Source: Escherichia coli
GTDB taxonomy: Bacteria > Pseudomonadota > Gammaproteobacteria > Enterobacterales > Enterobacteriaceae
Assembly: GCF_003334385.1 (NCBI RefSeq)
Contig: NZ_QOWN01000140.1
DNA length: 967 nucleotides
Strand: one strand, 5' to 3'
Part shown: positions 582 to 967 of the stretch, piece after piece
How the letters are laid out: each line of letters opens with the position of its first letter
Position numbering within the stretch: position 1 is the first letter of the stretch
The notes under the pieces: model-generated
Databases searched by the model: none
The model's input: the letters and a program-made list of their open reading frames with translations, nothing else
What the model was told of the DNA's origin: nothing
Made by a program: the position numbers and the translations under genes

Positions 582-967
582 ACAGAGTAACCGCGATTAT
601 CTCCGCTCTGGTTATCTGCATCATCGTCTGCCTGTCATGGGCTGTTAATCATTACCGTGATAACGCCATTACCTACAAAGCCCAGCGCGACAAAAATGCC
701 AGAGAACTGAAGCTGGCGAACGCGGCAATTACTGACATGCAGATGCGTCAGCGTGATGTTGCTGCGCTCGATGCAAAATACACGAAGGAGTTAGCTGATG
801 CGAAAGCTGAAAATGATGCTCTGCGTGATGATGTTGCCGCTGGTCGTCGTCGGTTGCACATCAAAGCAGTCTGTCAGTCAGTGCGTGAAGCCACCACCGC
901 CTCCGGCGTGGATAATGCAGCCTCCCCCCGACTGGCAGACACCGCTGAACGGGATTATTTCACCCTC
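578..967 (+). CDS. Rz: i-spanin Rz (inner-membrane spanin subunit), 3' end truncated by the window edge
   Basis: ATG at 578..580 overlaps the R stop (ATGA). Frame 2 is open to the end of the window and translates to [130 protein letters not shown]. It has an N-terminal transmembrane segment (residues ~4-24, type II topology), then a charged helical, coiled-coil-like periplasmic region, and a Cys at residue 99 matching the lambda Rz periplasmic cysteine. It is absent from the ORF track, presumably because no stop codon falls inside the window. Confidence 0.92.
784..790 (+). promoter_or_regulatory. Shine-Dalgarno sequence for Rz1, embedded within the Rz coding sequence
   Basis: GAAGGAG is a near-consensus SD, 7 nt upstream of the Rz1 ATG (798). 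The same bases encode K-E in the Rz frame. Confidence 0.65.
798..967 (+). CDS. Rz1: o-spanin Rz1 (outer-membrane lipoprotein spanin subunit), embedded in the +1 frame of Rz; 3' end truncated by the window edge
   Basis: ATG at 798..800 is preceded by a strong Shine-Dalgarno GAAGGAG (784..790) with a 7-nt spacer. Frame 3 translates to [56 protein letters not shown]. This is a signal peptide with a lipobox V-V-G-C (Cys20 at 855..857) followed by a proline-rich mature region, diagnostic of Rz1. The gene lies wholly inside Rz in a different frame, the classic embedded spanin architecture. Confidence 0.9.
846..857 (+). other. Rz1 lipobox (V-V-G-C), signal peptidase II site with Cys20 as the lipidated residue
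   Basis: The Rz1 signal peptide [19 protein letters not shown] ends in VVG followed by Cys, fitting the lipobox consensus [LVI][ASTVI][GAS]C. The +2 residue is Thr, not Asp, consistent with outer-membrane sorting. Confidence 0.75.

Follow-up and report, generated by a model that had tools for sequence, protein, structure and literature searches.

A lambda-type Rz1 (rzoD) frame nested in the +1 frame of Rz (rzpD) at the end of a predicted lambdoid prophage lysis cassette of Escherichia coli

RESULTS

Gene content of the window

The window, that is, the whole 967-base stretch of E. coli DNA that was analysed, carried four reading frames on its plus strand, all of them intact. The gene order was pinholin (1..84), SAR endolysin (84..581) and Rz (from 578), with the spanin pair closing the lysis cassette, as follows.

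1..84, plus strand: 3' end of a class II holin (pinholin) gene of the S21/essD type, frame 1, last 27 codons, with the stop codon TAA at 82..84.
84..581, plus strand: SAR endolysin gene (R21/RrrD lysozyme), an open reading frame (ORF) of 165 amino acids with the stop codon TGA at 579..581.
578..967, plus strand, running beyond the window to window-equivalent position 1039: Rz i-spanin gene (rzpD), frame 2, ATG at 578, first 130 of 153 codons.
798..967, plus strand: Rz1 o-spanin gene (rzoD), frame 3 (+1 relative to Rz); of its 60 codons, the window covers the first 56 and 2 nt of the next.

The pinholin frame is annotated as essD or as a class II holin in identical or near-identical records. 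The endolysin matched the PHROG 7 endolysin family (E = 4.5e-69), being annotated as "SAR endolysin glycoside hydrolase" in phage 434 and as "lysozyme RrrD" in E. coli. Its N-terminus is Gly/Ala-rich and weakly hydrophobic, of the phage-21 SAR type, and its residues E35, D44 and T50 occupy what we take to be the positions of the R21 catalytic triad. The holin stop and the endolysin ATG share one base in the TAATG at 82..86, and the endolysin stop overlaps the Rz ATG in the ATGA at 578..581; overlapping stop and start codons at both junctions suggest translational coupling along the cassette.

Over its whole length the window matched the E. coli SCU-104 chromosome at 100% identity, the genes being annotated there as essD, rrrD and rzpD, and many lambdoid phages, phages 21 and 434 among them, at 97 to 99.3%. 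Judged from its sequence, the window corresponds to a lambdoid prophage lysis cassette of E. coli, and this cassette is evidently a mosaic of known modules, with phage-21-type S/R genes joined to a lambda-type Rz/Rz1 pair. A scan of the window against Rfam (E ≤ 1) gave no match, i.e., no sign of additional structured RNA. Promoter and terminator sites predicted in the cassette were no more numerous than in shuffled sequences, and no internal promoter for Rz1 was found, which fits translation of Rz1 from a shared late transcript.

The Rz frame

As read from the 100% identical genomic copy (L003), the stop codon of Rz lies at window-equivalent positions 1037..1039, giving a full-length protein of 153 amino acids. 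Rz matched Pfam PF03245 (Phage_lysis, E = 3e-54) and the PHROG 13 Rz-like spanin family (E = 1.2e-79). An NCBIfam scan gave no family match for Rz1 and only a sub-threshold match to PspB for Rz, and sequence searches of the PDB found no solved structure for either protein, the only matches of Rz being compositional coiled-coil ones to ATP synthase subunit b. An AlphaFold2 model of Rz, built on 12 homologues, divided the part of the protein encoded in the window into three regions.

578..838, plus strand: N-terminal transmembrane helix and coiled-coil CC1 of Rz, residues 1 to 87 (AlphaFold2 helix 2-87, pLDDT about 78 to 92).
839..937, plus strand: linker L2 of Rz, a disordered hinge, residues 88 to 120 (without secondary structure in the AlphaFold2 model, pLDDT <50 at residues 95 to 120).
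938..967, plus strand: start of coiled-coil CC2 of Rz, residues 121 to 130 in the window (AlphaFold2 helix 121-151).

In agreement with this model, the domains described for lambda Rz are a transmembrane domain at residues 1 to 24, CC1 at 27 to 87, linker L2 at 89 to 120 and CC2 at 121 to 150 (PMC5295617). Rz has a hydrophobic N-terminus and showed the layout of an i-spanin, in which a transmembrane helix at the N-terminus is followed by two coiled coils with a linker between them. Both C99 and C152 are present, and both are invariant in the alignments.

Two peculiarities of individual Rz alleles were observed. In locus L084 (IMG/VR contig 2537561603_000004) a nonsense codon at Q151 removes the last three residues of Rz, Cys152 among them, and leaves the Rz1 frame intact. 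At the equivalent of window position 578, Rz starts with GTG instead of ATG in phage 434 (L001, position 2078) and in phage 606R7 (L087, position 400).

The nested Rz1 frame

The Rz1 start corresponds to nucleotide 221 of Rz, i.e., to the second position of codon 74, which places Rz1 in the +1 frame of Rz. Of the 183 nt of the Rz1 gene, positions 798..967 hold the first 170; in the 100% identical copy L003 the frame ends with a TGA at window-equivalent positions 978..980, 13 nt past the window, giving a protein of 60 amino acids, and Rz ends 59 nt after Rz1. Since in this copy Rz1 (3798-3980) stops before Rz (3578-4039), Rz1 is entirely embedded, its 3' end lying outside the window itself. The features of the nested gene are the following.

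784..790, plus strand: Shine-Dalgarno (SD) sequence GAAGGAG for Rz1, within Rz codons T69-K70-E71 and 7 nt before the ATG; a ribosome-binding site is annotated here in phage 434 and lambda imm434.
792..794, plus strand: TAG stop codon in frame 3, closing the Rz1 frame just upstream.
798..854, plus strand: Rz1 lipoprotein signal peptide, residues 1 to 19, with a charged n-region (R2, K3, K5) followed by a hydrophobic core; it overlaps the end of Rz CC1.
846..857, plus strand: Rz1 lipobox V-V-G-C, with Cys20 (855..857) as the predicted lipid-modified residue, followed by Thr21.
882..884, plus strand: Cys29 of Rz1, invariant in the 14-sequence alignment.
891..959, plus strand: functional core of Rz1, residues 32 to 54, with the pentaproline at 891..905 and a proline-rich region that includes the PPP at 921..929.

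The pentaproline is encoded by CCACCACCGCCTCCG and the triproline by CCTCCCCCC, both in frame 3; in the Rz frame the same DNA reads A-T-T-A-S-G over 890..907 and A-S-P-R over 920..931. With Thr rather than Asp at position 21, sorting of the lipoprotein to the outer membrane is expected. In lambda, Cys29 of Rz1 is the site of a homotypic intermolecular disulfide, and the region of residues 32 to 54 is mutationally sensitive (PMC5295617). Rz1 matched Pfam PF06085 (E = 3.7e-20, over model positions 1 to 40 of 41) and PHROG 3198 (E = 3.7e-30).

The initial annotation had described Rz1 as a gene embedded in the +1 frame of Rz, with an ATG at 798, the GAAGGAG at 784..790, two further ATGs at 813 and 816, and the proline runs PPPPP (891..905) and PPP (921..929) read as TTASG and ASPR in Rz. 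Each of these positions and readings held, and the embedded arrangement was borne out, in agreement with the published architecture of lambda (PMC5295617, PMC6139136). An implausibly short frame-3 product, which a stop codon soon after the window might have imposed, was ruled out, since the stop lying 13 nt downstream yields the canonical 60 amino acids.

Prophage context

The anatomy of the locus leaves room for a copy that, with all its genes intact, lies in a defective, DLP12-like prophage, so that the dual-coding segment would be a preserved relic and not part of an active lysis module. We regard this as possible, if rather unlikely. In its favor, E. coli K-12 has essD-rrrD-rzpD/rzoD-borD inside the cryptic prophage DLP12, and 4,861 of 5,426 complete E. 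coli genomes (about 90%) contained the segment, at a median of 2 places per genome, many of which are likely prophage remnants. However, rusA, quuD, nohD and a large terminase gene flank the cassette in the 100% identical genome of SCU-104, an arrangement like that of a complete lambdoid late region; packaging genes follow the cassette downstream, in contrast to the DLP12 remnant of K-12. The intactness of the four reading frames of the window also argues against a relic, as does that of Rz1 in all 41 distinct close alleles (85 loci), among which only L084 carried a nonsense codon in Rz. By analogy with the same cassette in cryptic DLP12, the prophage copy could also be intact and yet rarely or never used. 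The question of a relic concerns activity only and leaves the dual-coding anatomy untouched. Downstream of Rz/Rz1 lies bor/iss, which is shared with lambda.

Start codon of Rz1

Initiation of Rz1 at 798 is the reading that we favor on the strength of the start region. Owing to the TAG at 792..794, the ATG at 798 is the first start available to the frame. Two more in-frame ATGs follow at 813 and 816, 15 and 18 nt downstream, as Met6 and Met7 of the N-terminus M-R-K-L-K-M-M, and a real Rz1 might start at one of them, instead of or in addition to 798, giving a shorter or a second product. Met6 is found in 13 of the 15 homologues, and dual-start motifs occur in neighboring holin genes, for which S71/S68 starts are annotated. 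Nevertheless, a start at 813 or 816 seems very improbable. The GGAG sits 7 nt before 798, whereas no SD-like run precedes 813 or 816. All 15 homologues retain Met1 and a signal of 19 residues ending at Cys20, but phage 3W and Klebsiella phage Chronis lack Met6/Met7. A start at Met6 would moreover delete R2, K3 and K5, the charged n-region that the signal peptide needs, and the Met6 codon (ATG at 813) is imposed by the Rz frame, which encodes Asn79-Asp/Glu80 there (Asp80 in the window). Finally, a lambda Rz1 in which Met1 is changed to Lys is defective in lysis despite retaining Met6 and Met7 (PMC5295617, Table 3).

Use of 813/816 as a secondary start, in the manner of the holin dual-start motifs, would produce a shortened Rz1 isoform that lacks the charged n-region, and we give this still less credence. 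If it existed, such an isoform would fail to be exported, and it might influence how much o-spanin is made or when.

Conservation of the +1 frame

The homologues used for studying the conservation of the nested frame (n = 15) were chosen through Rz only, from GenBank phages, and extended down to 55% Rz identity (Salmonella ST64B and Klebsiella phage Chronis). Rz-related loci on viral contigs comprised only relatives that were 96 to 100% identical, too close for deep comparison, and these were used for polymorphism counts. The +1 ORF, the aligned first ATG, the purine-rich SD-like run and a Cys at exactly position 20 were kept in 15/15 homologues; in PA21 and BP-4795 the usual Rz1 ORF was seen by direct translation. 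No homologue lacked the frame-3 ORF, an absence that the initial annotation had named as evidence against a nested gene.

Some of these phages showed further variation. Phage D2 (L088, 621..791) and phage 3W (L094, 600..791) carry a variant Rz/Rz1 pair with a different C-terminal half of Rz1, and in the D2 record, which contains Ns, an apparent in-frame deletion removes Cys29 of Rz1 together with the matching residues of the Rz linker.

An open +1 frame by itself was not significant. When Rz was recoded synonymously, the overlap segment was free of +1 stop codons in 25% of trials if codons were drawn by local usage and in 13% if they were drawn uniformly; a +1 ATG-ORF reaching 60 codons or more arose in 32% and 13%, respectively. 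Given that an open +1 frame is expected often by chance, ORF length was not used as evidence. The +2 frame of Rz was stop-free for 51 to 62 codons in three homologues (Stx phages L091, L093 and L095) and for only 24 in the window; this looks like chance, and ORF length alone looks like a poor criterion in Rz.

Codon positions were compared in a codon alignment of 14 homologues, phage D2 being omitted from the diversity statistics because of the Ns in its sequence. The mean pairwise diversity at third positions of Rz was 0.202 in the overlap versus 0.415 where Rz is coded alone (Mann-Whitney P = 1e-7), the latter value being probably somewhat inflated, as are the polymorphism figures outside the overlap, by the mosaic nature of the phages and by the highly variable N-terminal transmembrane module of Rz. 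At codon positions 1 and 2 of Rz the diversity was the same inside and outside the overlap. Since the wobble base of Rz is the second base of an Rz1 codon in the +1 overlap, lowered third-position diversity is the expected signature of dual coding, and the comparison of codon positions, proposed at the outset as a check, thus gave the signal expected of it.

The two other measures pointed the same way. The ratio of conservation of the +1-frame translation to that of the Rz frame was 0.98 in the overlap and 1.17 over Rz1 residues 32 to 54, compared with 0.73 upstream and 0.65 downstream of the overlap, where the same phantom frame served as a control. Among the 41 distinct close alleles (85 loci), 11 of 180 nt varied in the overlap versus 68 of 279 nt outside it (Fisher P = 1e-7), a 4-fold lower density of single-nucleotide polymorphisms (SNPs), and no variable site of the overlap was silent in both frames. 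Wobble diversity, the +1/Rz ratio and SNP density all indicated selection on both reading frames in the overlap.

That the frame-3 ORF is accidental and yields no protein, Rz alone being coded, has hardly any chance of being right: the frequency of stop-free recodings and of long +1 ATG-ORFs, the open +2 frame of some homologues and the annotation of rzpD alone by RefSeq/PGAP at the identical locus would allow it, but it is at odds with the Pfam Rz1 match, with the retention of ORF, start codon, SD sequence and Cys20 in every homologue, with the loss of half the variability of Rz wobble positions in the overlap only, with a +1 translation whose conservation exceeds that of Rz over the Rz1 core, and with the genetic demonstration that Rz1 is essential for lysis in lambda (PMC5295617, PMC6139136), so that the comparative data refute it in practice. 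Chance falls far short of explaining the family match of Rz1, the retention of its ORF in homologues and the signal at codon positions.

Sharing of constraint between Rz and Rz1

The overlap covers residues 74 to 130 of Rz, of which 24 are helical (74 to 87 and 121 to 130) and 33 belong to the linker (88 to 120). It had been assigned as a whole to the periplasmic helical domain of Rz; this holds for the two helical stretches, whereas residues 88 to 120 form a low-confidence, disordered linker in the AlphaFold2 model. The Rz linker underlies most of mature Rz1, and the proline runs of Rz1 (residues 32 to 36 and 42 to 44) lie over linker residues 105 to 118. Mean identities of the two proteins differed along the overlap.

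Over the Rz1 signal peptide: Rz identity 0.74, Rz1 identity 0.63.
Over the Rz1 core: Rz identity 0.73, Rz1 identity 0.86.
Over the dispensable Rz1 tail: Rz identity 0.80, Rz1 identity 0.59.

Thus, within the +1 frame conservation peaks in the Rz1 core, where it exceeds that of the overlapping Rz codons. Constraint is dual at the nucleotide level, while at the protein level it is interleaved, not stacked, and largely partitioned between Rz and Rz1. The strong overlapping constraint that had been proposed for this segment was therefore an overstatement. The same partition emerged from the saturating mutagenesis of disembedded lambda genes by Cahill et al. (2017), in which silent regions of one gene overlie sensitive regions of the other, and residues 100 to 115 of lambda Rz can be replaced by Ser-Gly repeats with function kept (PMC5295617). 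The overlap would be tolerable because constraint is partitioned in this way, with the Rz1 signal peptide over the end of Rz CC1 and the proline-rich core over a dispensable linker.

DISCUSSION

Positions 798..967 are almost certainly the 5' part of Rz1 (rzoD), nested in the +1 frame of Rz (rzpD), with the two genes closing a lambdoid prophage lysis cassette. No sequence evidence against this nested arrangement was found.

The closest described system is that of lambda. The Rz gene described here is 99.4% identical in DNA to that of lambda, its protein differing at one residue (N2 versus S2), and Rz1 likewise differs from lambda Rz1 at a single residue (R2 versus L2). The lambda architecture is also shared, with Rz1 starting at Rz nucleotide 221 in the +1 frame and having 60 amino acids, Cys20, Cys29, a P5 run and a proline-rich region. 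Unlike in lambda, the upstream partners are a phage-21-type pinholin and a SAR endolysin instead of the S105 holin and the R transglycosylase. Gene order and names are the same in DLP12 of E. coli K-12 (essD-rrrD-rzpD-rzoD) and in phages 21 and 434, the differences being allelic only; the K-12 annotation places rzoD (b4510) within rzpD at the corresponding position, and the curated records of phage 434 and lambda imm434 label the last two frames i-spanin and o-spanin and give each a ribosome-binding site. More distant spanins, such as the overlapped or separated pairs P2 lysB/lysC and T4 pseT.3/pseT.2 and the unimolecular T1 gp11, likewise disrupt the outer membrane as the final step of lysis and make use of a lipoprotein element located there (PMC6139136). 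Their genetic architecture is unlike that described here, and there is no sequence relationship.

Given that the lambda proteins differ at only one residue each, a spanin complex and its disruption of the outer membrane can be inferred here from near-identity. By analogy with lambda, Rz and Rz1 would both be translated from one late mRNA, Rz from the ATG at 578, coupled to the endolysin stop through the ATGA overlap, and Rz1 independently, from the ATG at 798, by means of the internal GAAGGAG. Rz would be a type II inner-membrane protein, inserted by its N-terminal helix and exposing two coiled coils and a flexible linker to the periplasm. Rz1 would be exported, lipid-modified at Cys20, cleaved after Gly19 and, with Thr at +2, sorted to the outer membrane. 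Covalent homodimers would form via C99/C152 of Rz and C29 of Rz1, and the C-termini of both proteins would bind each other across the periplasm, giving the spanin complex. Once the endolysin has removed the peptidoglycan, this complex would fuse the inner and outer membranes, completing lysis, as in lambda (PMC6139136, PMC5295617). In lambda, mutants in Met1, Cys20 (Table 3) and the prolines of Rz1 are defective in lysis (PMC5295617).

The lambda-type embedded Rz/Rz1 pair is already known, and nothing found here goes beyond the published lambda work. The annotation of the locus is incomplete. At the 100% identical locus, RefSeq/PGAP lists rzpD only and no o-spanin (window 798..967; L003, 3798..3980; L004, 2298..2480). 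In a spread sample of genomes, the o-spanin was listed in 6 of the 37 E. coli records covering most of the segment and missing in 31; K-12 and a few plasmid records do annotate rzoD/Rz1. Among 528 two-component spanins, Kongari et al. found 182 embedded systems, and they noted 196 o-spanins that lacked annotation (PMC6139136).

Rz/Rz1 is the prototype, or textbook case, of a gene nested wholly out of frame inside another. The locus illustrates a persistent annotation gap for o-spanins, and it provides a clean positive control for the detection of dual coding from codon-position conservation.
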